Source: Hormiphora californensis (lineage: Eukaryota; Animalia; Ctenophora). Taken from it: a stretch of DNA of 64,000 nucleotides. Shown in pieces: positions 1-59,000 of the stretch; position 1 is the stretch's first letter, and the number at the start of each line of letters is the position of its first letter. The notes beneath the pieces are model-generated. The model saw only the letters and a list, made by a program, of their open reading frames with translations. It had not been told where the DNA came from and searched no databases. Both the position numbers and the translations under genes were made by a program. The stretch covers positions 7,564,001-7,628,000 of the forward strand of contig CM035355.1 of NCBI GenBank assembly GCA_020137815.1, in the 5' to 3' direction.

Positions 1-3000
1 CGGTGTAGATCTTTCTGTCAACAAGAGAGGACTAATCTGATGTTTGAGACGGATGATCAGATGGAACAAGCGAAGGAGGTTCTCTCTCCATTCCTTATGT
101 GTCTTCTGCAGTGGAGAAAGAGAGAAGAAGGATCCCCGGATAATGGTCAATGACCTTGATCAGGACCTGTTAGAGAAGGATAGTCTTCTCTCCGAGATTG
201 TCAGTGATAAGAATGAGTCAGTGAAGAGGCTTGTTGAGGAGGGTCATGTGTGAAGGTGGTTCATATTAACAAGACAGGGAGATATGCTGTGGATTCAGGT
301 AACCCCAGAGGTGAGGAAGGTGATTGCTGACGGAAGGACAAGCTCTTTTTGAGCTCCGACAGCACTTTGTTAGGAACAGGTTTTATGTCACTCAGTGTTT
401 CCACTGTCAGCGCTTTGGTCATGTAGCGGGTCCATCTACTGTCCAAACAAGGATAAATCTGCTGTTTGTGCCTTCTGTACAGGGGATCATGAACTAGGAG
501 TTGCCAAGCCAAGAAGGATAACGTAGTGAGCAGAATGAAATGTCAACTGGATCATGGAGGAAGCAAAGAGGACAAGCGTCATGCTAAGAGTCACCCAGCC
601 TCAAGCAGTATGTGTCCATTCTACATCAATGCTAAAGCTAGACTCATGGAGGCACAAGTGGCGTGACTAAGGAGGAAAAAACCTGTAATCAGACGAGGGC
701 ATGGGAGGACCTGAGAGGAAAACGACTTGGAAGATTGGCTCACTAAATGTTCACTCAATTATGATAAAACGTCAGGTGTAATACACACTTGGAGGAAAAA
801 GGATGCGACCATCTGGCGGACAGGAGACTTATCTGAAGCAAAGTGACACTGCAAAACTTCAGGAGATTAGAGATTATGGTTGAACATCTTCTCCTCTCCT
901 AGGGCCGAACGCTCTGGAGGAGGAATTGGATCTTGTACAGGGATGGCGTAAAGATCAAGTACACACCAGTAAAGACTAAGTTTAAATCATTCCAGGTCCA
1001 GGAAGCCCTTATCGGTATTGGGCAGGATCTTACAAGGTTGTGCAATATCTATAGGCCTCCTTACACGGGCAAGGCAAGATATACGGAAGCACAGTTCCTG
1101 GATGAGTTTAATGACTATCTGTCCGAGCTAGTCTGCAAAACTGGATATCCGTTCTGATGGGTGATTTTAACTTCCAAGTCCACGACACCCAGAACTTCTA
1201 TGCCAAGAAATTACTTGCACTGCTTGACTCTCTGGGGTTTGATCAATTAGTTCCAATGCAAACCCACCCATGTGTCGAGGAGGTACTCTTGATCTCTTGC
1301 TGTGCCAAAAAGACAGAGTTTCTAAAGTTCAATCAGTGACAATATTTCCAGAAGGGACAACTTCGGAATCACTTTATGTTTTAGCTGATCTGTTAATCGA
1401 GGACTACTAGAAGTGAATACAAAACCCGTGAACAGATTGACACATAACAGAGATTTTAGGGCAGTTGACCTGGAACTGTTCAGGCGAGCTTTGGAGATGT
1501 GGATTGGAGTGCGGTGATGGAGTCTAAATCTGCTGAGGATGCTTTGGCTGCTTATTCGAGGATAATCGAGGATCTTGTGGAGAGGACTGTCCACTGAAGA
1601 GGAAAAAGAGAAAGGGGCGAAGATAAAGCCATGGAGAGATAATCCAGAGGTGCGTGAGGTTCTTCGACTACGAAGAAAGCGCGAGAGGGCTTGGGAAAGC
1701 AACAGAACTAGTATAACGAAGAAGCAATTCAATGACCTCAGAGAAGTTTGGACGTGTGGATAAAGAGGCGAGAATGAAGTAGTGTGAAAGATGATCTAGA
1801 GAATCAAGGGATGACCCAAAGCACTTCAGAGAAGCTCAGCCGCCTTCTTGGAAACAATGAAACCTTTCTACCGAAACAAGTGATAAGGGAAGCTAGCGGA
1901 TGATTTTGGTGACTTCTTTGTTGGAAAAGTTGAGAGGATCCGAACTACTGTGTTAGAGGAGCAGAACCAGAGGACAACGAGGAATGTTTTACATCGACCC
2001 CTGTCTGGTTGTTTTGAAAAGTTTGAGGAGTTTCCCCGAGAAACTAATCAGGATTATCAAAGATATTGCCTGACAAGACCTGTGATCTTGATCTCATACC
2101 TACGTGGTTGGTGAAAGGTTGCATTGATGAGCTAGCCACCGCTTTGTGCAAGTTTGTAAACCTATCACTCCAGTTCCAGCGTTCCTGATATTCTTCAACA
2201 AGCATTGGTTTTTCCTACGATTAAGAACCCCCATGGGGACAAAGACTCCTTATCACACTACCGTCCAGTCTCAACCTACCGTTTATCTCCAAATTACTGG
2301 AAAAGGTTGTCCTAGAGCAGCTGAACTCATACCTCAATGAGAATGAGTTACTAACAAACATCAATCGGGTTATCGGGTGGGACATAGTTGTGAAACACTC
2401 TGATGGGTATGTTTGATGATTTACTACGAGACCTTGATGAAGGAAAGGTCACTGGCCTCTTTCTTTTAGACATGAGTGCTGCCTTTGATACAGTGGACCA
2501 TGGGAAGCTGCTAGAGACTCTGAGGACAGTTTGAGTGAAAGGCTCTGTGCTGGATTGGTTTGCAGCTATCTACAGTGTAGGAATTACCGAGTTAATGTGG
2601 AGGGGGAGCTTTCGAGGATCACACGCTGATATGTGGAGTTCCACAGGGGTCACTGCTAGGGCCGGTATTGTTCTTGTTGTATGTCGAGGAGCTCCAGGAC
2701 TTGGTTAGACCCTTTGGTCTGAGGATTAAGCTATACGCCGATGACTCTCAACTGTACATCAGTCTTGTGCCTACTGACGAGGATGGTTGGAATGCAGCGA
2801 AGGAGAGGATTGAGGAGTGTCTATCACAGTGTGAAACTGTGGATGAGTGATCACTGGCTTAAGTGTAATGAGCAAAGACAGAGTTTTTACTGTTAGGTAA
2901 GAGCAGTGCTCTGGATAAGATGGTCTTCCAGCCCACAGTAAGCTTTGGAGGAGTGGAAATCAGCCCTATGGAATTTACTGGATCTGCAGGGAAGACCCTG

Positions 3001-4037
3001 GGTGTTATTCCTTGACAGTAACATTTCGATGGAAAGGCAGATCAACAGTGTTAAGAAGCAAGTGGAATGCTTCTCAAGAATTTGTGGCAGGTTAACCGAT
3101 GTTTGGATAAACCGACCAAGATGCTCTGGTGAAGCAACTCATCGTTTCGAGACTTGACTACTGTAATGTCCTTTATTCTGGCTTACCAAAGAAGCTCCTG
3201 GATAGCTTGCAGCGAGTTTCTGAACTCATGTGTCAGATTTGTGTATGGCCTGTATGGTCACCAGGACAGTTACATGCCCTACTTGAGTGAAATGCACGTC
3301 CTCCCCGATTGAACAGCGAGTTAAGTTCAAGGTTTGCTTAATGGCGTACAAGATTGTACATGGCTTGGCTCCAGTGTACCTGCAGGAACAGGTCCCTGTG
3401 GATGATGGACTACATGTGATCCGGACTACCAGAGGAAACGCTCAGCCTGATGGCCTCAAGCTGAGGTATCCTAAGCTATCCAGTGTGAATGCAACTTCTA
3501 AGTTGAGGAGGAGACGTCCGTCGGTTTATCTGCCTGAAATCTGGAATAAGCTTTCCATTGATCTGAGAGCAATTGACTCTGTGGACTCTTTCAAGTCTAA
3601 GCTAAAGACTAGTCTCTTCATTGAGGCTTTCGGTGAATCCTGATTGTCACTGGAGTGTTCTCTCCATCTACTGAGGTTTGTTCTCTAGCTGGTACCTGTT
3701 TTTTTTTTTCTGTATTTGGCTCGTGGCGAGCAGAAGTGTGAAGCACGTTTTGGGTTTTTTCATAGCACGAGTGTTTTCTATCTATTGGACTTTTAAACCA
3801 TCTTTTTAGAGTTCACAGGACTCTTCTCAGTCTGTTATGTTTTCAGTTACCGATAGTTATGTGGGCCGTTGTTTTTTTTTTACCATTTTTTGTGGCAATA
3901 TTAAGGATATAGTCGGCAGGTATATTCAAGTATGTTAACCGTTCAGATCATCCTTCAGTGACAGCAACAGTTCTACTGCTCTGTCCCTGTCGGATATGGG
4001 CGGAATACAAACATAGTTATTATTATTATTATTATTT
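1..4037 (+). mobile_element. Non-LTR retrotransposon (L2/CR1 group, L2-like), 5' end outside the window, multiple frameshifts
   Basis: ORF1 C-terminus has Cys/His knuckles (QCFHCQRFGH at about 393-422). ORF2 fragments show APE motifs (ETYL, RSGGGI, MGDFN at 1157) and RT motifs (GVPQGSLLGPVLFLLYV at about 2635, LYADDSQLY at about 2731). L2-type C-terminus (VKFKVCLMAYKIVHGLAPVYL...WNKL...FKSKLKT) ends at 3643; (TTA)n tail at about 4017-4037. Confidence 0.92.
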
Positions 4038-4119
4038 ATAGCACGTTTTTAAAAAAACTGTGTCATACAGTGAATGAGACTCATCGCGATTAACTCTTCA
4101 TACGGTTACCCCCTTTCTC

Positions 4120-5312
4120 TCTTTGGCAGCTGCTGACTTTGTTTTAAACTTTCCAACACTACTTTAAACAAATTAATTTGAGCAACATGGCGATGTAACG
4201 GCCCCAAAGGGCAGAACGTAAGATAATGGCAGACGAACAACGAGAATTGGACTTTGCTGTAAGACGGATTCTGACGCTGGCCAAAAGTGGAGAGAGCTCT
4301 GTCGCTGGCAATGTCTTAAGAAAGTGCAGGAGCAGTCCAGATTTCAACGATGCTGAAATACCGTCATCAGTTAAAATCAGCTCTGTACACACGAAATATG
4401 AGCTACAACAACTGATTGAAGAAATGAGCTTCGCAACCTTTATTGTTCTAAAACACTTTGAGCGTCATATCTTTGCCGAGAAATCCCCTGAGATGGTACT
4501 CAAAGAGGAGCTCGGCGAACTCAAAGAGGAGCGAGATGAACTGTTGAGAAAATCTGTCGAGTTGCAGGAGCAGGAGGAGAAGTTGAAAGTGGAGTGTGAT
4601 GATCTTTTGGAAGAACTGTCAAGTTACAAGAGCAGGTTATTGAGCTTCAGGGCGAGCAACTGCATCGAGTTACCGAGACGGTACAGAAAGATTTGCGTAC
4701 TTTCTCTGCAGTCGTCACACAGAATTGTAAAACTGCGTTTGCATCGAAAAAGATCCAGAAAGCCGTGGAAAAGGTTACGCACAAGCCAGTAGATACCGGC
4801 CCAGACAGATCGAAAAATCTGATGGTGTTTGGTCTACCGGAATGTGAGGATGAAACTGAATCTGTGTTAAAGGGTGAAGTGGAAAATGTTTTTGCTGAGC
4901 TAGGCGAGAAACCGACCATAGAAGCTAGAAGGGTGGGTTTGAAACGGGGAGGAAGGGAGAGACCAGTGATTGTGAAGCTACAGAGTAGGGAAATGCTGCT
5001 GAGCCTTCTCCAGAAGGCAAAGCAGCTAAAACAGTTAGAATCGTAGCGGTGTATATCTTGCAAGGGATATGTCCTTCGCAGAGAGAAGTGAGAGGAGAGA
5101 ACTCCACCAAACGTTGAAGGAGTTGAGGGACTCGAATCCTGGAGGCCAATTCCGGGTACGGAGGGGGTGATAGACTTTTCATAATAGGTATCTTCAATGA
5201 ACTTTAATATCTATCGGTAACCCGTATTTGCCCACAAAAAGGGGCTTATTTATACAATTAAATTGTGTAAATTATATAGATTTAATAATAATAATAATTA
5301 TCTTTGGCAGCT
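4120..5312 (+). mobile_element. Non-autonomous ORF1-only retroposon with SL-like 5' end, (TAA)n tail and 12-bp flanking direct repeat
   Basis: TCTTTGGCAGCT occurs at 4120-4131 and 5301-5312. SL-like 42-mer at 4141-4182. Frameshifted ORF 4226 to about 5170 has a coiled coil followed by LINE ORF1 RRM/CTD-like motifs (NLMVFGLPE...ARRVG...RPVIVKL). (TAA)n tail at 5283-5298. No RT. Confidence 0.85.
4141..4182 (+). other. Genomic copy of a spliced-leader (SL) exon-like sequence
   Basis: GTTTTAAACTTTCCAACACTACTTTAAACAAATTAATTTGAG is 39/42 identical to the reverse complement of 34427-34468 and matches my recollection of the ctenophore SL exon (...CAACACTACTTTAAACAAATTAATTTGAG). Not followed by a GT donor. 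Confidence 0.8.
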
Positions 5313-27989: not shown

Positions 27990-30900
27990 CCTCATAATGC
28001 ATTGTCCGGGTTCTGTGGGTTGATGAAGTAGTTGGCGTGTTTTGAAGTTTCTAACCGTCTTCCCGGTTGGAGTGAGTTCCGTCCTGACTGAAAATAGGGG
28101 GCTGGTCGTTTGAATTAGTCTCTTATAAACTGCTAATGAATTTCACAATTTTTGCTCCTACTCCCAGGTGTAGGAGCAAAAATTGGAGCTCCCGGCCCAT
28201 GTGACCCCCCCCCCCCGGCAACCCCGCCAGCCCTAATTTAAAAAACCTACCAGTGGAGAGGAAGCAGTTTGATCCTGTTGTTCCTCAGTGCCCAACCCCT
28301 CCCCCACCCATGCTGCACCTACCAGCCCCTCCCAATACCCGGTACCCTATCCCAATAGCCCCTAACCCCAGCCCTATCACCTACCAGTGGAGAGGAAACA
28401 GTCTGATCCTGTTGCTCCTCAGTGGGTGTTCTCCGCTGCTTCTGGAGTACCGGGGGGCTGATGGCAGGGGCCTGCTGGGCACTCAACCCCGAGTGCATCA
28501 GATGTGACCTAGTTTGGGGGACACTACGGGATGAGTGTTAGAGGGGTGTGTTACAATGTTGATTTGATTTGAAACTAATTTGCAATATATACAGGAAAAG
28601 TAGCACACATAAAAATATAAATATATATAAGTCCCTGTATATAGAGCAGATTAGAGGCAGGTCTAAGTAGACGCTTACGCCGCAGAGTCATACTAAAACA
28701 TCTATAGGGTAATGTAGTAATAAATTAGGTAATATTAATAAGTTAAAGGTATTATTTTAATAAATTTTATTTTTATTTATTTTAGATTATTTTGTCCTGT
28801 CAGTCATTCACGTCAAGTCATGTTGGAGAAGTGTTTTAGGAAGTAGAAAGATTGCAGTGTTTAGGGAGGAGTCAGGAGGAGAGCAGCAAGGGAGGAGGGA
28901 AAAAGGAAGAGTATAGAGGAGAGAGAAAGAAAGAAAGAGGTGTAGTAAAGTGCTTCACAGCTGTACTTCCATACGTCTGGGATTAGAGGGCTAGTAGTAG
29001 TGACACACAAGTAGTAGAAGATAATTTAGGTTATTCCATATTCTAGCAGTGGGTTTTTGAGTTTAATGGAAAAAGTGAAGGGTTGCATATTTCTCTTAAT
29101 GACAATGGGAGTAAGTTCCAGGCCAAATGTGTTCTGTAGAAAAATGACTGCTCAAATGACTCAAGTCTAGCTCTCTCGGTGCAAACAATATGGAGGTCAT
29201 CTCTCTCACTCTGGAATCTCGTTGTTTAGTAAATGGATTGTCTGTCATACATGTGTAGGTATGCAGGTAGTTGCAGAGGAATGTGAGAATAAACTATTTT
29301 GTGCAGAAGAGATGATCGGTGTAGGTGAATTTGAGGGACTCGGAAGTAGTTTCAGTTCACATAATTTCTTTCTATATTCGGTGTCAGTGTGTGCTAGCAT
29401 ATTGCTCATTAAGAATAAATTTCACAGCCCTTTTTGTATCTTTTCGAACTTACTGAGACCATTTTCACCTGAAGGTCTCCAGATTGGTGAACAGTGTTCA
29501 AAAAGTGACCTAACTATAGCTATGTAAAGGTTCTTTTAGCTTGTGTCTGACAGACCATATTGCAGTGCCGTTTGATTAAGCCTAGTTTTTGTGAAGATTT
29601 TGATACAATAGATTCAATGTGATCAGTGTAGCTTAGTTTGGCCGTCATAATCACCCCCAGGTCCTTTTCTGACGATGTACACTCTAATTCTACTCCCCAA
29701 CATGTATCTAATATCTATAGCATCGCGTTTATATGTGCTCCGTATTACCTTACTTTAGAGGGATGGAACTTCATTTTGTTTGCAGTGCTCCACGCTTCTA
29801 ATTATCTATATCTAACTGCAGACTGTCGTTTTGACATCTAATTTCCGCCAAATCTTGAGGTCATCGGCATATAATTTTATTTGTATCCATCGCCTACACT
29901 ATCGACAATATCTTTATAAATAGGACAAATAGAAGGGGGCCTAGAATAGAACCCTGAGGTACTCCGGATGTTACAGGAGTCCAGTCTGAGAAAGTGCCAT
30001 CTACCATTACACGCTGTCTTCGATTTTGGAGATAAATTTTTATAAAATTTAGCAGCTTACCGTCTATATCGAATTGGTTCTTAAGTTTTTCTAATATTAA
30101 GTCATGAGAAACACTATCGAAAGCCTTAGAGAAGTCAAAATAAACTATATCAGTTGGAGATGATGTTTAGATTATAGGCAGTTGACTAGAAAATTCAATA
30201 AGTTGTGTGTTACATGATTTATGAGGGACAAAGCCATGTTGATGTATCGGTTTTGTCTTCACACATGAAAGGAGAGCTTGTCCCTGACTAGATTTTCAAA
30301 GACTTTCATAACTAAACATGTGAGAGATATGGGCCTATAATTCCTAAATCATTCTTGGCACTCTTTTTGTGTATAGGGACAACATTTGCATCTTTCCATT
30401 GGCAGGAATAATGCCAGCATGAAAACAGCTATTGAAGAGTAAGGATAGTGGTTTACTAAGAGAGATCTACATTTCTTTAGGACAATGCCCTCTATATTAT
30501 CTGGACCAGAGGCTTTAGATGGATCTAAATTTTTGAGTACTTTGAAAACATCACTTTCCATAAAATAGGTGTCGTTACAGTCCGAATGATTGTTTCTACT
30601 ATAATTAACGTGAGTTTTGTAATCACTGCTGCCCGAGAATTGTTGACTAAAAAAGAAATTAAACATGCTACATTTATCTTCTGATTTGGTGGATGTGTTT
30701 TTCATTATGTAGAACGTCAGGGATTCTAGTACTATGTGATAGAGATCCAATGTGTTGACACTTTTAGACACAGAATTTCCAGAGCCTTCGTCAGTGAAAT
30801 AACTTGCCATTTTATTTTTGACATTTCCCTATATGACACTTCAAGTTTTAGGAAAAAGTCTTTAAGAACAGGATCTGACCCAGAGCTATTAGCTGCCTTT

Positions 30901-33900
30901 CTAGCTCTATCGAGTCTATTTTTTAGATTTTTTAGCTCGCTGTCATACCATGGGGGTTTATCCCCGACTTTAACAAGAACCATAGGAATATGTTTTCTAA
31001 GAATAATGTCTAATTTTGATTTAAAGATGTCTAGTTTTCTTTAATTGTACGGTTTCTAAAAATGGCCCCCAGTCAACTTTACCTAATTCATTATTTATAC
31101 TATTCCAGTCCGCCTTCTTGTAACAGAATTTTCTCACTTTTGTGACAGACTTGGGTTTCTTGATTAGGGAGATATCAGCTGTTAACGTGAAATGGTCAGA
31201 AGAAGTAAGGAGGTTTGGTTGGATGGAGTGCTTGAGAAACATGTCAGGTTGATTAGTCATGATGAGGTCAAGAATGTTACCTGACTGATGGGTAGGATTG
31301 TTAATTAAACAAGTTAGACCTAAGTTATCGAATATCTCTAGGAACCTAGAGTGACTGGAGTTAGAAGTAACGGGTGCATCCCAGTCCTTAACTGAACTTA
31401 AGTTCAGGTCACCTATAATAGCTATGTTGCTATATCGTCTTATGAGTTCTAAATAATATTCTTCTACTGAGTCTGCGTGCTCAGACTTACTATAATCATA
31501 TCTATAATATGTTGAGATACAAAGTTTATGCCCATTTTTTGCTTTAACAAGTACACTTAGAATAGGAAGATCTCCAGAATTACCCTTATACAGAGAAACC
31601 TTAAATACCAGCATTGTTTTTACATAAGATCATTACACCCCCACCCCCTTTTTATTGTGTATTCTTTATCACCTGCAGTTCTATCCTTTCTATAAACTGT
31701 GTAGTACTGATCCAGTACCACTTCATTATCTGTATATACTTAGAAAGCCATGTTTCATTTAGAATAACTATATCGGGGGTATAAGTGTATAGGTATGCCC
31801 TTAGACACTAGTTTATTAGCCTGGAAGGTTGGAGTTTTTGAGGTCATAGAGTTCATATGTATTAATCCCTGGATGTTACAGTAAACTATTTTTAAGGAGT
31901 CTAGCTTCATACTTTGTTTGGGCAGGATTGTAGATGAGGATTGGTATGTAGGGTTGCTATCACTATGAGTAGCAGTGCACAGCTAGCTACGAAAATAATG
32001 ATACTAGCGATTTGACTAATAGTTTCAGGAAATACAGTGTTTTGGATATTTTATATCATTTCTTTTAGAGGATATGGTGCTACTGGAGTTATGCATGAAA
32101 AGTATGCTATTTGTATTGCTAAATAAAGAGGATAGATTTGAGGTTTCATAAAACTGCCACTCTCAACAGATGGTGACGGGCAGTGGTCTAGGTTGTTGGA
32201 GAATGACTGGCTGGAAAGGCCGAGAAAACATAGAAAGATTATTAATCCATATAGAAAGACACCGAAACCGGCTAAGAAAAGTGAGAAGAAATGAGAATTA
32301 GACGGGAGTTCGCGGTATGACGTGGGATAAGAGCTAATTTTAGTAGTCATGTTGTGTCCGTTGTATTTTTTTATGGTCAGTCTAAGGTAGTGCCCTCCTA
32401 TTCTACAGCGGTATGTTTCAATGTCGATCATTTTCTCAAAAACTTTTCTTCTATTCAAATATATATTTTGTGGTACTTTGTGGTACCCGGGACGCGAATT
32501 TTATTTGTATAATCTGCTCTATTTAGTTACATTATATATATGATAGAGAATTATATCTCTTAGCCTCCTTTTACCATCATTATTAAGATGGAGCCTCCCT
32601 CGTCCGTACAGACTCAAGTTCATACAACACCCACAATGCTCCAAAAACTCCTCAAGACAGGGCACCCAATGAAAACCATAATCCAAAACCAGCTCTCTCA
32701 AGACTCTATTGGATTTCATAATATCCCCTGAAAACTCGCCATCCCCTCGCGGCAGAATGTTCACACAAAACACACGGGCTCTGGGGAACATTTCTCCCAC
32801 CACTCTGAGAAGTTCCGAGTAGTCAGAGAACAGTTCCCGGAGGCGTACTTTCCTAGCAACATCGTTCGTGCCCACCAGGACAGTGACAGAATTTACATTG
32901 TCACGGACCTGTTGTGCACGGATTTCTGAAGTTAGTTATAGTAATCCTCGCCCCACCGAGGGAAATACTCCCAACATTCCTTCCAAAACTAACCCCCTTG
33001 ATCATAGAGTCCCCAATAACCCAATGTTTTGGTTCTAGTGGTGGAGGAGGAGGAAGAAGACGTGGTGATGGTGGTGGGGGGAGTTGATATCCATCTCCTG
33101 TCGGCACCGGCAGAGTAAAGTCCGATGGTAGAACTCTTGGGACTCTAGGTGGGATGTGATCCAATTGATAACCATCACCTGTCGGCTCAGGCAGAGTAAA
33201 GTCCGATGGTAGAACTCTTGGGACTCTTAGGGCGACGGGATCCATAGGAGAGGGAGATGAGATTCCAGGAGTGGGAGCCTCTGTTCCAGGAGGCTGCATT
33301 GGTGATGGTAGTGACTCCGTTTCTACCCAGCTAGTCGACTGAGGTTGATGAAGGGGAGGGGAGTAGGAGGCCAAAGAGTAGTCGAAGAGCGGGGAGGAGC
33401 ATCAGGCCGAGGAGTGGAGGAGGATGGTTGTGCAAGGGAGGTGTTGTGATTCTCTGCAGCGGATGAAGAAGAAAAACGAGACCGGCAAGGAGGTCGATGC
33501 TGCTGTGGGCCTGGCAGAAAACCGTGTGAGACAAGGTTTCTCCTGGTAGCTCTGACCGCTCTGAGGAGGCTCGAGCGGGGCGAGACATTTCCATCGAATA
33601 CAATGGGGGTTGTGGTCCCCTGGAAAGTTACCGGTGGCCTCTCAACTCTTCCAGTCTGATCTGATGATGTTGATGGGTCAATGACCTTCCTGAATGATAG
33701 AACATAGCGTCTCCCTTCTGCGTGAACAACCCCATGGAACAGCCCCTTCTGATCGGGTTTAAACAGCAGTGAGTCACCACTTGCCTAACTACTGAACCAG
33801 CAAGTTCGCTGGACCAGTTATTCCCCTTTCGGAACTGTAGGGTACGTGGAGCACCTACAGAAACCGACACGACCGGATGGCCTGGCACATTCATCTTTTC

Positions 33901-36900
33901 GGTGTCTTGGTGCAGCCCAAGACCGTCAGGGTGGCCCGGTACCCCCAAATACCGGATGACAAGGCAACCGTTGAAGGCGAGTCCAGTTAACTGGTTCACC
34001 CTGTTCATGATGGACATGATCTCCCCAGGTACAGATTTAGCCACAAGGTGTACATCATTCCAACCATAGTTGACCCCCGTCTCACTATACCAGCTGAAAC
34101 GACTGGACCTTCCGCGAGCAAAAGTTTCCTCAAAGAGTTGGAATGCCTGGTCGGCCGCATCAGGGGGGATAATAGATGCCATGTGAAGGGCAACGCCAGC
34201 AATATCAGCCGATTTGGGAAGTTCAACTGATGACCAGAGGGGGGCAGGGGGGTGGTTACTCACAGATTCATCAAGCCTGGAGAAGGAGTTTATCAGCTCC
34301 TCCAATGCCTCACGGGATACTTCAACTGTTTCCGTCGTGGAGTTTCCTAGCGCCTCCAACGTTCTGGTAAGGTCATGGACAGCGTCCCGGGTACCGTTCC
34401 TCAAACTCATGCTAATTCATCGGGACCTTAAATTAATTTGTTTAAAGTAGTGTTGAAAAGTTTGAAACATGTGGGTGCCTCACAGTCTCTACTAGATCCT
34501 ACTGTGGAGGTGTGGGGTGCAGCAGGTCTCTACTAGATTCTACAGATATGGGTGGGTATATGGGGTGTGTTCAGAATGTGAGTAAAATTTAGAGACCTAG
34601 TGAGAATTGCTCTGTCGAATCCTCACCACAGAGCGCAGTGTGAGCTACACTTGGTTACGAAGTCACCCCTTTTATTGCATATGTGAGCCATTATAACGCG
34701 GAGGGGTAATTTCATTACACAAAGTGTGATTCACTGTACTCACTGCCTCAGTTGAACTTGATGTAGAGTGACAGTTGTAGGGGCATCTGATGAGGTGCTT
34801 GATGGTATAGTGGATCGGGAGAGTTTGGCTTTGGGTGAGTATGCGTGGTATGAAACAAAGAGAGGGTGACAGGGCACTCTGAGGTTCTTCGAGCATGTTC
34901 CTTCTTCTTCTCTAAACAAATAACAATCAAGTTACCATGCTTACCATTTCACTAGTTACCATGATTACCCACTACATGTTACCATGGTAACCCATTCACT
35001 AGTTACCATGGTTACCCTTTCACTAGTTACCATGGTAACGAACTACTGGTTACCATGGTTACCCACTCACTAGTTACCATGATTACCCACTACATGTTAC
35101 CATGGTTAGCATTCTAATTACCTAATAGTTGAGTTTGGGGTACACATCATCTCTTTTGTTGGAGGCACCTGTTTCTGGGACAGTTCCCGGGCCATTTTAC
35201 TTCGCAACTGTTTGATGTAGCTTTGCAGTGAGGTCGTGCTGCGAGAAGAAGAAGTGCTGTTAGAGACGTGGAAGGAAGTGGAGAAGTATTGGAGAGCAAG
35301 GGAGGACGGAAGCGAGAAATATTCATAATGCGCATACGTGAATTGCTTCCAATAACTTGGCAATATGTTCGACATGTTATCCCTTTTTCCTTCCGAAAAG
35401 GGTTGTTTTTACCTCCCTCCATTGTATCATGATACATGATATACATGATATGCATGATATACATGATATACATCTTCTATCAAGTTCTAAGTCCCTCAAT
35501 TTCTAGCTCTAACTCTTGTTTTGTTCAAACGCTTTTTATTTTATTTTATCGCGCGGGGAAGGAGGGTCGAACAAGTAAAGGTAATCTAACTCTATGTCCC
35601 TCAACTTGTTCAAATTATACCTGTTAGAGTTGGGTAGCTCGTGGTAGGCCGGTTTGTAGATTGGTTCCGGTGGAGAGTTCTTGCTTGAAGTCTGCTCTCC
35701 GCCCAACTGAGACGATCTGAAACAGAAATATTGGTAATTTTTATAACCGAGACAGAATGGTTGAGTAAGGGGTTGCCAATACTCAGCTGCTAGCTTTGAC
35801 TTGTTCTGTCTGGCGCCGCCGACCCCATCTGAGAATCAAATTGGGGTATGGGCGCCGCCATACAGGACTTGCTGGGTTAAGGGGGTGAGCCCCAATTTTC
35901 ATTGGAACTTGTTGAGTAAGTACAGCTGATGGTCAGAGTGGGCTAACATTATCTTGACACAGGGCAGTAGCTTTTTTTTCACTTCAGGAACCGACCGACA
36001 CAAGTAAACAACCAATCAGAACTCGTTATTTAGGTCACATGACTGGTTTATTATCAGCCAATCAGGGACCAGTATTTCCTGATTAGGTCGGTTCCTGCTG
36101 CACTTACTTGTTAGAGTTAGCCCGCTGACGGTGAACCATTAGAACCTCATCTCTAAGGTGGGCCTTCAGTTTGGACTTATTTACACCGGTAGCTACAGTC
36201 GGTACGGTCGGGGGTATGGGTTGGGGAGTCAACTGGTAGTAATTTAGGAAGGTTTTGGCTACATTCCGACCCAGTCCAATATAACCATCCACGGTATATG
36301 GTATCACCTGTTGAGAGATAGAACGTGTTTACAAGTTCACAAATAGAGGTTTATTGTAACAAAAAAGAGGTCTTCTCGTAATGGGTCTACCTAAAATGTT
36401 GTAATAATAATATTACTAATATGCTACAATTTCCTAGAGGACTATTTACAGTAACTGCATATGCAGTGCAGATACAAAGTTTCATTATTAGACGGGGATT
36501 AGACCGACAACAGCATTTCCGGGTTAAGACTCTATAGACTCTATAGAACGTGTCGAGCTCCAGTATAATTCATAACAATTCACTGATTTATTCAGTCATT
36601 AAATCGTAGTGTTACTGTTTGAACTTGTGTCTTCGCCACTGCATATTAGAAGTATTATTTGACAAAATACTACGACTACGAGTACTATAAAAATACTTTT
36701 ATTGAAGTAGTATATTCTACAAGATACCTGGCTGCTCTGCGTTGTGTAGCTGTAGAATGAGACTTCGAGGGTATAACAATTGGATCTGGGCGACAGACAC
36801 GATCCCAGGAATCTCCGGCCAGTCCCCGCCTTTACCGCATCTTTATTGAATGATGTAAATGCCTGAAAGGAAAGTGTTATAAAACTGTCCTATGACATAT

Positions 36901-56000: not shown

Positions 56001-59000
56001 GCTCACGGATATATATGCAATAATAGGGGTGACTTCGTAACCAAGCAATTACTTCACCAACTAAATAACTCTATCGCATTCTCCTCCTAGCTTTATCCCC
56101 CAGCTCTAACTAACTCCCTCTCTCTTCCTCCCCGTTTAGTCTCTATCGATGAAGGGTAACATGGACATGTATGATGCTGGTATGAAGGAGTGTGTTGAGC
56201 TGGGGTGTGACTGGTACTTTGCCATGGATAGCGTCATCTCACTGACTGAGAGGACCGTGCTAAAGGATCTGATTTACTGGAACGAGAGCATTATAACTAC
56301 CCAACTAACACAACCCGGACAGGTATTGTAAGATTATTTATCAATAAAGTTGATCAAAAACTGTATTTTCTTCCTTTAGGATTAGGAGGTCAGAACTTTA
56401 ATTTTGTACCATCAAAAACTATAATTTCTTCCGTGTAAGGACTTGAAGGATAGGTTGGGGAATTGTAATTTCCCTATTTACAATTGAAGGGTACAACATC
56501 TATCCCCTCAGTACTGGAGTAACTTCTGGGGTGACGTTAACAAGGATGGGTTCTACAAGAGATCACCTGACTACTTTGAACTGGTGAAGAGAGAGCGAAA
56601 AGGGTTGTGGAATGTGCCTTTTGTTAACAACCTCATTGCTATCCGAGGAGATGTAGTCCGATCTGGGTTAGTAATCAACTGGGTGGGAATCGGGTTAGAC
56701 GTTATTATTATTAAACTGGGTTATTGATAATGGTGCTGCACACTTGAGGAATGTATCGTGTATGACATGTGGTGGTAGCAACCTTGGATTTGCCCCAAAA
56801 TAGTTTCCAACTTTTAGTCAGAGACTAGAGAGCTATAATCTACCCCCTTATCCCTCACCCCTAATACTCGCTTCACTCAGATCGGTAAAGTACCACCATG
56901 AGAAATATGACGACAGTAACCACGACGTGTCTTTTGCTGCTAATGCACGTGCAGCTAATGTGTTCATGTACACTGTTAATTTGAAGTACCATGGACATCT
57001 CAAGGTTAGTCATATCTTGCCCCAATCAATTTCAATCTACCCAAACCCAAGTTGGGGTCATCTTGAGTTTTGGTCAGCTATAAGTGATGATGATAGGTAG
57101 AAAAAGTTTTGGTAGCTTGGTATCTTCTCATTTCCCAACTAGGATCTCCAACAGGGGTTCACTTCCAATTAACTTCGCTTTTATAAATCACTAACTCTCA
57201 CCCTACCCGACAGAGAATGGAGAACTACACAGATGCGAACACCCACAACGATCTTTGGCAGATATTCATTACCCAGTCGACTGGAAGCTGAATTATATCC
57301 ACCCCAGCTATGATAAATATGCTGCTAAAATGAGGCACCATTTCCCTCAAACCTTGTCCCGATGTTTTCCATTTCCCCTCCTGTCTAGTAAGTTAAACTT
57401 CTTGCCCCAAACAAAGGATCAGATTAAATCATGGCGCCCCAACAATTCAATTTTTCATTCAATATCTCTAACAAGTTTGTCATTAATATATCTCTAACAA
57501 GTCCCCAATTATTTACAGAAAAGTTCTCGTGGCACATCTCCACGAGCTGGAATCTATTCCTGGGGTTGTATTTGCTGGATCGGGGGTTAACATGATAACC
57601 GGTTAGCTGGTGGCTATGAAAATGTGCCTACTGTTGATGTTCATTTTACACAGATTAACTTCCAGGTGAGTTGGTAATGAAATTACCCCTCTGTTATTAT
57701 ATGCAATAAAGGGGTGACTTCGTAACCAACAGGTGACGAGAGATTGAACCATTCGAATAGAAACATTAGCTGTGCAATATACCTGATTAAAAAGTATTGA
57801 TTTTATTTGGAATGCGCTGCAGCCCCCTCATGCGCGCACCCCCGCACCGAGGGGACTGAGGGAATGCCGCGCGCGCGTTTTGGCCTGAGCTCAGGACGGG
57901 CCCGGCTGGGTCAAGATAACTTTGCGAGCGAAAAAACGGCGTGTGCTTATAACTTTGGCCCCTGAGTCCGTTTGACTTGATTCTTTCACTAGCTGTTAGA
58001 TCTGCCAATTATCTACCTTGCTGTTTTTGAGAGATGAGTTAATTGAACTTCAGGAGGCTGAGCATAACCGTTCAAAGATGGTTTGTTTTCAAAAAACGTC
58101 ACAGATCCCTGCAGGGACACTTTGTTTCAAAACTTTGTTTAAAATCTCGAATTTTTTTATTTTAAGCACTCTATTTTGCGGAGTTTGGTTCATATCTCCT
58201 GTTCCTGATAAAGAAGAGACCTGAAACCGGTTGCATTTGAAAGCTGTTATCTTCCTCTTTCCAACGCTACCAAACGATTTCTGTACCTTATCTGAAACCG
58301 GAGATATGATTTGATTTGTATTCCCCCCCAGCGCGGTATTCCCTCCAGGCCCCTTATATTATATATAAGGGCCTGCAACGTATGCCAATGAATTTTATTG
58401 ATTTAAAAAGTATTGATTTTACTGATTTTATGCGAATTTGTCAAGTTTTAAACAATAACATCCTCTAACAGCAAAGTGGCTAAAGGTGCTCAGGGACTAC
58501 GTTGGACCCATCCAGATGCGAGTTTTCGAGGGCTACAAATTCCACGGATCGGCTTATTTGAGTTTTGTTGTGAAATATCACGAGGCCGGACAAAGAAGTT
58601 GGTTCCTCATCATGACCATTCTACCTTTACCACTAACACTGCCCTGAATGAACAAATATCCGATTATGAGGTACGTTAGAGGGAATGATAGGGGGATCTA
58701 GTAGTTTAGAGGGGGAGGATAGGGATCTAATAGTTTAAAGGGGAAGGATGGGGATCTAGTAGTTTAGAGGGGTCTGGGAGATAATTGTATGTCTCTTTTA
58801 AGTATGTTACCATGCCATAGCTTTCCTAATTAGGGCATAATGATTGCAGCTCGCTCAGACCCTTTTTATTCATGGTAAAAAGGTAAAAAGGGTACGAGCA
58901 GTTTAGTTTTCTTTCCCATGCCTCTTTCCCATATAAGTTGCTAAGTTGCCACATCAGCACACCTCCTTCACGTACACAGCTGCAGAACTAGGAAGTGACA

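Follow-up and report, generated by a model that had tools for sequence, protein, structure and literature searches.

A 64-kb stretch of the genome of the ctenophore Hormiphora californensis (contig CM035355.1, positions 7,564,001 to 7,628,000; here called the window) contains a full-length long interspersed nuclear element (LINE) on the minus strand at 28559-34468 that carries the spliced leader (SL) of its host at its 5' end. Taken together, the results make it very likely that the template for this copy was an RNA already trans-spliced, apparently as a matter of routine. The SL-headed LINE is real and well supported, whereas the promoter-less cycle that an earlier note on this DNA had proposed for it is doubtful and open to direct test.

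The spliced leader and the insertion site of the LINE

The 5' terminus of the LINE is a 42-mer (minus strand, 34468-34427) that is identical at 39 of 42 positions to plus-strand positions 4141-4182, as the earlier note had described. Even with 10 mismatches allowed, the window has no match beyond these two; the chance expectation is about 4e-14. The 42-mer agrees at 41 of 42 positions with the final 42 nt of the published Hormiphora californensis leader (PMC8527503, passages on the leader) and likewise at 41 of 42 with the exon of an SL gene array found in public data (L025). It spans SL positions 2-43, with an AAG end instead of GAG as its one change, and its first 3 nt (GTT) are common to the host flank. 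The same 28-nt SL core opens 27 ordinary mRNA-like contigs among the 39 public loci described below, which places the sequence on mRNA 5' ends, and run X10, whose RNA origin we guessed, has contigs with the SL followed by other sequence. The 42-mer is the ctenophore spliced leader of the host, in agreement with its first identification. Sixteen nucleotides separate it from the ORF1 ATG at 34410, exactly the gap noted before; this short leader (34411-34426, minus strand) holds, as read from the sequence, a two-codon upstream open reading frame (ORF), ATG-AAT-TAG, at 34420-34412.

The array L025 repeats an SL exon with a GTAAG donor together with 5S rRNA in units of 778 bp, and Rfam detected only the 5S rRNA in it and nothing in the window. 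Its flanks match loose contig ends in run X1, which are the flanks of SL genes elsewhere in this organism. Contig depth summed at the SL includes the SL gene array of the organism and was not used as a copy number. In one contig of run X3, SL positions 2-31 run into the start of another SL (joint 34468->34439); somewhere in this genome there is thus a partial tandem of SL sequence.

The LINE lies in an intron (28509-35121, minus strand) of the host gene for cytosolic carboxypeptidase 6 (CCP6, AGBL4-like). Since the exons on both sides read in one frame, it is inserted in the sense orientation, and its placement in AGBL4, until then called probable, was borne out. Three exons upstream (36307-36108, 35716-35621 and 35256-35122) and two downstream (28508-28385 and 28087-27992) continue in that frame to the stop, and their joint product is 54% identical to the last 214 residues (aa 416-629) of a Bolinopsis CCP6-like protein (P0004); the nearest named match of the flanking exon is also Bolinopsis CCP6-like. 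The intron measures 6613 nt, or about 710 nt minus the LINE, which starts 653 nt past the donor and ends about 50 nt short of the acceptor. In the same intron, a short high-copy repeat at 34650-34718, also present at 55970-56045, has many loose ends at its borders and is missing from an allele in run X5.

Comparison of the junctions with 4 of the 10 listed sequencing runs revealed an empty site in runs X3 and X5, from two studies, with the joint 28560->34466 plus 2 further letters; the short sides of this joint are 26 and 18 letters. The empty site is free of SL sequence. Its letters GTT coincide with the start of the SL and its AA with the tail of the element, so that the 3' junction at 28559-28560 involves two microhomologies, a 2-nt target loss and no target-site duplication (TSD), and a search for a TSD at the LINE found none longer than chance. 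A contig of run X1 (record 7) spans the SL and the 5' flank without any difference. The flank is apparently repeated in some alleles, so the empty form may be either the other allele or a neighbouring unit. The SL therefore lies within the inserted DNA. Compared to the SL-gene flanks of L025, the two flanks of the SL in the LINE match at only 12/40 and 6/40 positions, the exon alone being alike. Insertion into an SL gene, as in NeSL, SLACS and CRE elements, was considered and rejected: the empty site is without SL, the flanks are unlike those of an SL gene and the endonuclease is of the APE type, not a restriction-like endonuclease (RLE). A split SL RNA gene, which would have undone the earlier proposal, is thereby set aside.

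Coding content was assessed by a Pfam scan of 22 minus-strand pieces. ORF1 (32513-34410, minus strand) combines an AlkB/2OG-Fe(II) domain (PF13532, E 6e-11), a proline-rich linker and an SGNH/GDSL esterase (PF13472, E 8e-10). ORF2 (29046-32430, minus strand, ends approximate) encodes an APE endonuclease (PF14529/PF03372) upstream of a reverse transcriptase (RT; PF00078), with no restriction-like endonuclease, and is followed by a 3' untranslated region (UTR; 28561-29045, minus strand) ending in (TCAAA)n-type repeats at about 28561-28575. With ORF1, APE, RT and (TCAAA)n end on the minus strand, the element is full length, and the separate ORF1 beside an ORF2 with APE and RT is the constitution of a LINE. 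Of its description as a complete CR1-group element, completeness stands; we call it CR1-like from its esterase ORF1 and from RT motifs that we take to resemble those of CR1, and the RT tree, built without named CR1/L2 references, only separates the group of a related protein (P0006) from L009/L010/L017/L039, with a long-branch warning for P0013. The esterase ORF1 (PF13472) fits type IV as defined in the passages of a survey of CR1/L2 elements (PMC4120745).

As assembled, this LINE is broken, with about 25 frameshifts. Two relatives have open frames, P0001 (675 aa, with the same start as ORF1) and P0006. Relative to P0001, ORF1 has 3 frameshifts (aligned aa 1-675), while the part of ORF2 aligned to P0006 (32087-29716; 695/769 identical) has 22 frameshifts and 1 stop. 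Homopolymers account for 5 of the 25 frameshifts compared to a background of 19%, so long-read homopolymer error is not indicated as their source, and family contigs differ from the window LINE by about as many indels as substitutions. No contig from the LINE body was found in run X10, and querying viral_contigs and genome_contigs with P0001 returned no related locus. The AlkB domain (34410-33700, minus strand; P0001) has ALKBH2 as its nearest solved structure, and HxD, H and RxxxxxR motifs are visible in both P0001 and the window copy, fused to the SGNH esterase. AlkB is reported from orchid Gypsy elements in part of one study (PMC9289625), and a literature search on AlkB in LINE ORF1 found no paper. 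Speculatively, the domain might strip methyl marks off the RNA or cDNA of the element.

Spliced leaders on other elements

To place the window LINE among other SL-bearing loci, metagenome_contigs from public sea samples were searched with the exact 28-nt SL pattern, which gave at least 39 loci (40 matches); the same pattern had 0 loci in viral_contigs and genome_contigs. The 39 loci divide into 27 host mRNA 5' ends, 1 SL/5S array and 11 loci resembling mobile elements. All 27 host-gene contigs open within the SL or at most 7 nt ahead of it, and 10 of the 11 element-like loci carry 5-456 nt of unrelated sequence upstream of the SL. The division of the assemblies into DNA-like and RNA-like was inferred from their content. 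Eight element-like loci are LINEs, which confirms that other ctenophore LINEs are headed by the SL; two are ORF1-only elements (L018, L037) and one is without assignment (L034). Both ORFs are whole in three of the LINEs (L009, L010, L017), four have an endonuclease or RT (L004, L022, L024, L039), and L036 is a LINE by its ORF1, 85% identical to that of L010. None of the 39 public loci belongs to the window LINE's own family at the DNA level. The ORF2 proteins of the L010 group are 24-32% identical to the relative of the window LINE, so the SL occurs on at least two distant LINE lineages, and SL-headed LINEs are apparently general in ctenophores. These loci were selected by the SL pattern, and in low-depth assemblies repeats are recovered more readily than single-copy retrogenes.

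The earlier note had argued that the window LINE leaves no room for an internal promoter. This applies to the window LINE with its 16 nt, and does not extend to 7 of the 11 other elements, whose 5' UTRs are 145-215 nt long before the first ATG; in host mRNA-like loci the first ATG lies 1-57 nt past the SL (median 6 nt). Five of the LINEs (L004, L009, L010, L036 and L039) share a conserved GTGTTTTAG immediately followed by GATG at the very start of ORF1, as well as conserved blocks in the T-rich UTR of 145-163 nt behind the SL. This motif or these blocks may represent a second acceptor or a promoter element.

The second SL-headed element in the window is an ORF1-only retroposon at 4141-5299 (plus strand), with its SL at 4141-4182 (40/42 to the SL gene), a broken ORF from 4226 and a (TAA)n tail. 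A 12-bp repeat at 4120-4131 and 5301-5312 flanks it, and it is 81% identical over 1180 nt to the SL-headed L037. SL-headed ORF1-only retroposons with short tandem tails resemble the elements called half-L1. The 4141 element, L037, L018, L022 and L034 have a 5' motif in common, a short upstream ORF followed by a GCCCC..GGGC hairpin. The ATGGCG that follows the SL of the 4141 element could be taken for a YY1-like promoter motif, a reading we discarded since these letters begin the short upstream ORF, which L037, L022 and L018 have as well.

Other ORF1-like and LINE sequences were seen in the window. A third ORF1-only element, related to these, has an open 349-aa ORF1-like frame at 45803-46852 (plus strand) that is 36% identical to the L037 protein, and a degenerate TAT-rich end; upstream there is no SL but only a CAGTTTC, some 65 nt ahead of its ATG, and it is possibly a copy with its own 5' end. 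The plus strand at ~650-4040 holds the decayed ORF2 of a LINE whose relatives are L009/L010/L039 and whose (TAT)n tail lies 100 nt ahead of the 4141 SL; a 5' end for it could not be located in the window. Among the host genes, the plus strand at 37750-40400, within CCP6 introns, contains antisense nested genes or gene pieces, namely one for a small secreted cysteine-rich protein and a cathepsin-propeptide-like ORF at 39889-40383, beside tandem papain-like proteases (42056-45350).

Origin of the leader and fate of the copies

In the 11 public and 2 window element loci, the SL joins the element at the exon's last base without exception (13/13), and the SL intron is present in 0 of 13. This exact junction and the position of the SL inside the insertion make it very likely that, as first proposed, the RNA was trans-spliced before reverse transcription. 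The SL reaches position 1-3 in 9 of the 13 loci, position 1 being missing in 12 and position 2 in 7. It is unchanged beside UTRs of the L010 group that are 56-93% alike and ORF1s that are 31-85% alike, as expected if it is added fresh from SL RNA, the absence of internal substitutions in the 11 public loci being partly forced by the 28-nt search pattern. The 16-nt gap of the window LINE falls within the range of host mRNAs.

An origin of the SL without trans-splicing, by insertion in or beside an SL gene, by fusion to free SL RNA through template switching or ligation, or by chimeric assembly, is highly improbable and already largely refuted. It could draw on the hundreds of genomic SL copies reported without explanation in ctenophores, 718 in Hormiphora and 491 in Mnemiopsis (PMC8527503, main-text passages), on the short sides of the joint, on the flank repeated in some alleles, and on the GT that follows the SL here as it would at a donor. 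Yet a free-SL-RNA chimera should include the intron that none of the 13 loci has. The empty site without SL, flanks unlike both L025 and the SL-gene flanks of run X1, the record that spans the 5' junction and an enzyme of APE rather than RLE type also speak against it.

For the origin of the acceptor and the fate of the copies, we lean towards a reading in which the SL was joined to the element's own acceptor AG, 16 nt before ORF1, and short-leader copies are mostly dead ends. A source copy would be transcribed, and the spliceosome would exchange the RNA upstream of the AG for the SL exon, as it does on host mRNAs and as the exact junctions suggest. The ORF2 product would then copy this RNA as far as the cap, in most cases ending 1-2 nt before it, which is consistent with how far the SL extends in most loci, and the cDNA would join the target through a 3-nt microhomology with loss of 2 nt, as the empty site shows. 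Trans-splicing onto the element's own AG implies that the copy likely lost 5' sequence of its source, whether an outron or a longer UTR, along with any promoter. Short-leader copies such as the window LINE would then mostly be dead ends, like the spliced human L1 copies known as SpIREs, and would be transcribed only by read-through, here from CCP6.

Two observations hint at element-encoded acceptors. A run X3 contig of the window LINE's family (record 24) aligns to the AG at 34428 with its first 17 letters unaligned, where, by our own reading of the aligner, an SL with one mismatch should have aligned. In addition, L037 reads SL-TTTCAG-CAA where the window element at 4141 reads SL-CAA, with acceptors 6 nt apart. 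Of the 11 element loci, 8 have a TTYAG in the interval from SL to ORF1, versus 0 of 27 mRNA loci, the element UTRs being longer, and the 14 host acceptors in CCP6 comprise 12 CAG and 2 TAG, with a purine at -3 in none. Several points weigh against this reading. No outron- or promoter-bearing copy was seen directly, and the case of the 17 letters is a single contig. The SL junction is at the same place in seven LINEs with ORF1s 31-85% alike, a constancy for which renewed splicing at the AG of the relic SL is the simpler explanation, and all seven members of this group are of the long form, though in most of them a consensus acceptor immediately precedes ORF1. Whole ORFs are present in three SL-headed LINEs (L009, L010 and L017), and a family of mostly sterile copies is hard to sustain. 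In a small weight matrix the relic AG scores 2.1-5.5, which falls among the weaker host acceptors, and the exact 28-nt search is silent on the share of copies that have no SL.

It is possible, though doubtful, that SL-headed copies are themselves fertile and that host read-through transcripts are trans-spliced at the terminal AG of the relic SL in each round, a promoter-less recycling that shares splicing, reverse transcription and integration with the element-encoded acceptor and differs in the acceptor used and the fate of the copies. It would account for the same junction position across diverged families, for a perfect SL beside diverged UTRs and for whole ORFs behind the SL. In the matrix built from the 14 CCP6 acceptors, with each host site scored left out in turn, the relic AG of the window LINE scores 5.5, where host acceptors range from -0.9 to 14.5. 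The window LINE also sits in sense in an intron, and L022, from an assembly whose other contigs are mRNAs and whose RNA origin was inferred, has an upstream stretch of 350 nt. As to precedent, 43% of SL acceptor sites in Schistosoma are cis acceptors and long introns can serve as outrons, according to passages of one study (PMC5832876), and re-splicing of relics is described for dinoflagellate retrogenes in part of another (PMC12014239). Against recycling, the TTTAAG end that the earlier note had made the basis of the acceptor is apparently private to the window LINE, AAG being found in 0 of 38 other non-array loci (all GAG) although the pattern allowed it, and the 14 host acceptors, all CAG or TAG, have no purine at -3. 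Better-scoring downstream AGs are kept in L004, L009, L010 and L036, the X3 contig has unaligned letters upstream of the AG, a host donor 653 nt upstream would compete, and the window LINE is frameshifted as assembled. Re-splicing of the dinoflagellate type takes place at a TAG within the relic and produces relics in tandem, of which there are 0 in 13 here; since re-splicing at the terminal AG leaves no tandem, this does not refute recycling.

A single capture of the SL, inherited since as DNA, with transcription starting at the SL or just ahead of it, driven by a promoter within the SL or the 145-215-nt UTR, and with trans-splicing no more than occasional, appears unlikely. Conserved UTR blocks in the L010 group and the survival of downstream consensus acceptors in retroposed RNA would fit it. 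The SL exon serves as a promoter element in Ascaris, for which we found no supporting paper. A promoter role has also been proposed for the TTTT box of the dinoflagellate SL in passages of PMC12014239. Without renewal, the end of such an SL would erode or turn into host letters, yet 9 of 13 loci still reach position 1-3 although position 1 is missing in 12 and position 2 in 7. The mere 16 nt past the SL in the window LINE also speak against it, as does the lack of internal SL substitutions among the 11 public loci, to which the search pattern itself contributed.

Meaning and relation to known systems

Known answers to the LINE 5'-end problem are internal promoters, ribozymes and the promoters of target genes. 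Rotifer Athena/Terminon elements use SL trans-splicing, for which literature searches gave no paper. The present case is one of animal LINEs, of distant lineages, whose 5' end is marked by trans-splicing in the host. Full-length copies are recognisable by their SL, and in RNA reads a relic can be distinguished from a newly added leader by private changes like the AAG of the window LINE, so the 5'-end question becomes directly testable. If recycling is true, it would be a fourth solution to this problem; if it is false, trans-splicing would act as a brake that sterilises copies. In its widest form, recycling would mean that several ctenophore LINE lineages have no internal promoter, that their SL-headed copies are fertile, read through from host genes and re-capped at the relic AG each round, and that a large part of the hundreds of genomic SL copies are their heads, a tentative proposal that we regard as doubtful. 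The 718 and 491 genomic SL copies can be read in the light of SL-headed elements, which is relevant to annotation. The main-text passages of the ctenophore leader study make no link between leader copies and retrotransposons (0 occurrences of 'retrotranspos'; PMC8527503). SL-headed LINEs in ctenophores were not found among the papers listed by the searches, a result on which the supplements of that study and Derelle 2010 may bear.

SLACS, CRE and CZAR of kinetoplastids insert into SL genes with an RLE endonuclease. NeSL-1 of C. elegans, as described in part of one source (PMC7650587), is a LINE that comes to lie beside SL sequence by inserting into SL1 genes and does not need its own promoter. 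Unlike all four, the window element is of APE type, carries the SL inside the insertion and occupies a non-SL site. It is like CR1/L2 elements with a type IV ORF1 in having two ORFs, an esterase ORF1, APE and RT, a short tandem 3' end and no TSD (PMC4120745). In the passages of that survey, the esterase ORF1 is confined to vertebrate subgroups and an oxygenase is not mentioned. In contrast, AlkB precedes the esterase in the window LINE, and the SL is its 5' end.

In the window LINE, a retroposed sequence begins with a genomic SL, as it does in SL-relic retrocopies. Dinoflagellate retrogenes with SL relics were reportedly described by Slamovits and Keeling in 2008. In dinoflagellates, passages of a later report (DinoRL; PMC12014239) likewise have trans-spliced RNA retroposed together with its SL, and the relics can be trans-spliced again; these are host genes and not LINEs, and their re-splicing at an internal AG leaves tandems that none of the 13 loci here shows. 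SpIREs are comparable in that their RNA loses promoter sequence through 5'-end splicing ahead of reverse transcription and the copies are mostly dead ends (PMC5860796, in part). They differ in arising by cis-splicing, at about 2% of full-length L1, whereas trans-splicing in ctenophores adds a host exon and seems routine.

In Hydra, the SL is reported on about 30% of Iso-Seq reads from transposable elements (PMC12220107, in part). The closest likeness is found in flatworms, where a genomic SL lies on LINE and long terminal repeat (LTR) loci, as it does on the window LINE. For Schistosoma mansoni, the authors suggest integration of trans-spliced RNA to explain genomic SL on retrotransposon loci (PMC5832876, in passages), and the same origin is suggested in part of a study of parasitic flatworms for 597 discarded loci with an SL on retrotransposons (PMC12582326). 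In the passages concerned, these are passing remarks on partial leaders, for which chimeric assembly is possible, and they come without junction, empty site, family comparison or life-cycle test. Compared to these reports, the ctenophore case has a near-complete SL, an exact exon junction, an empty site and several families.

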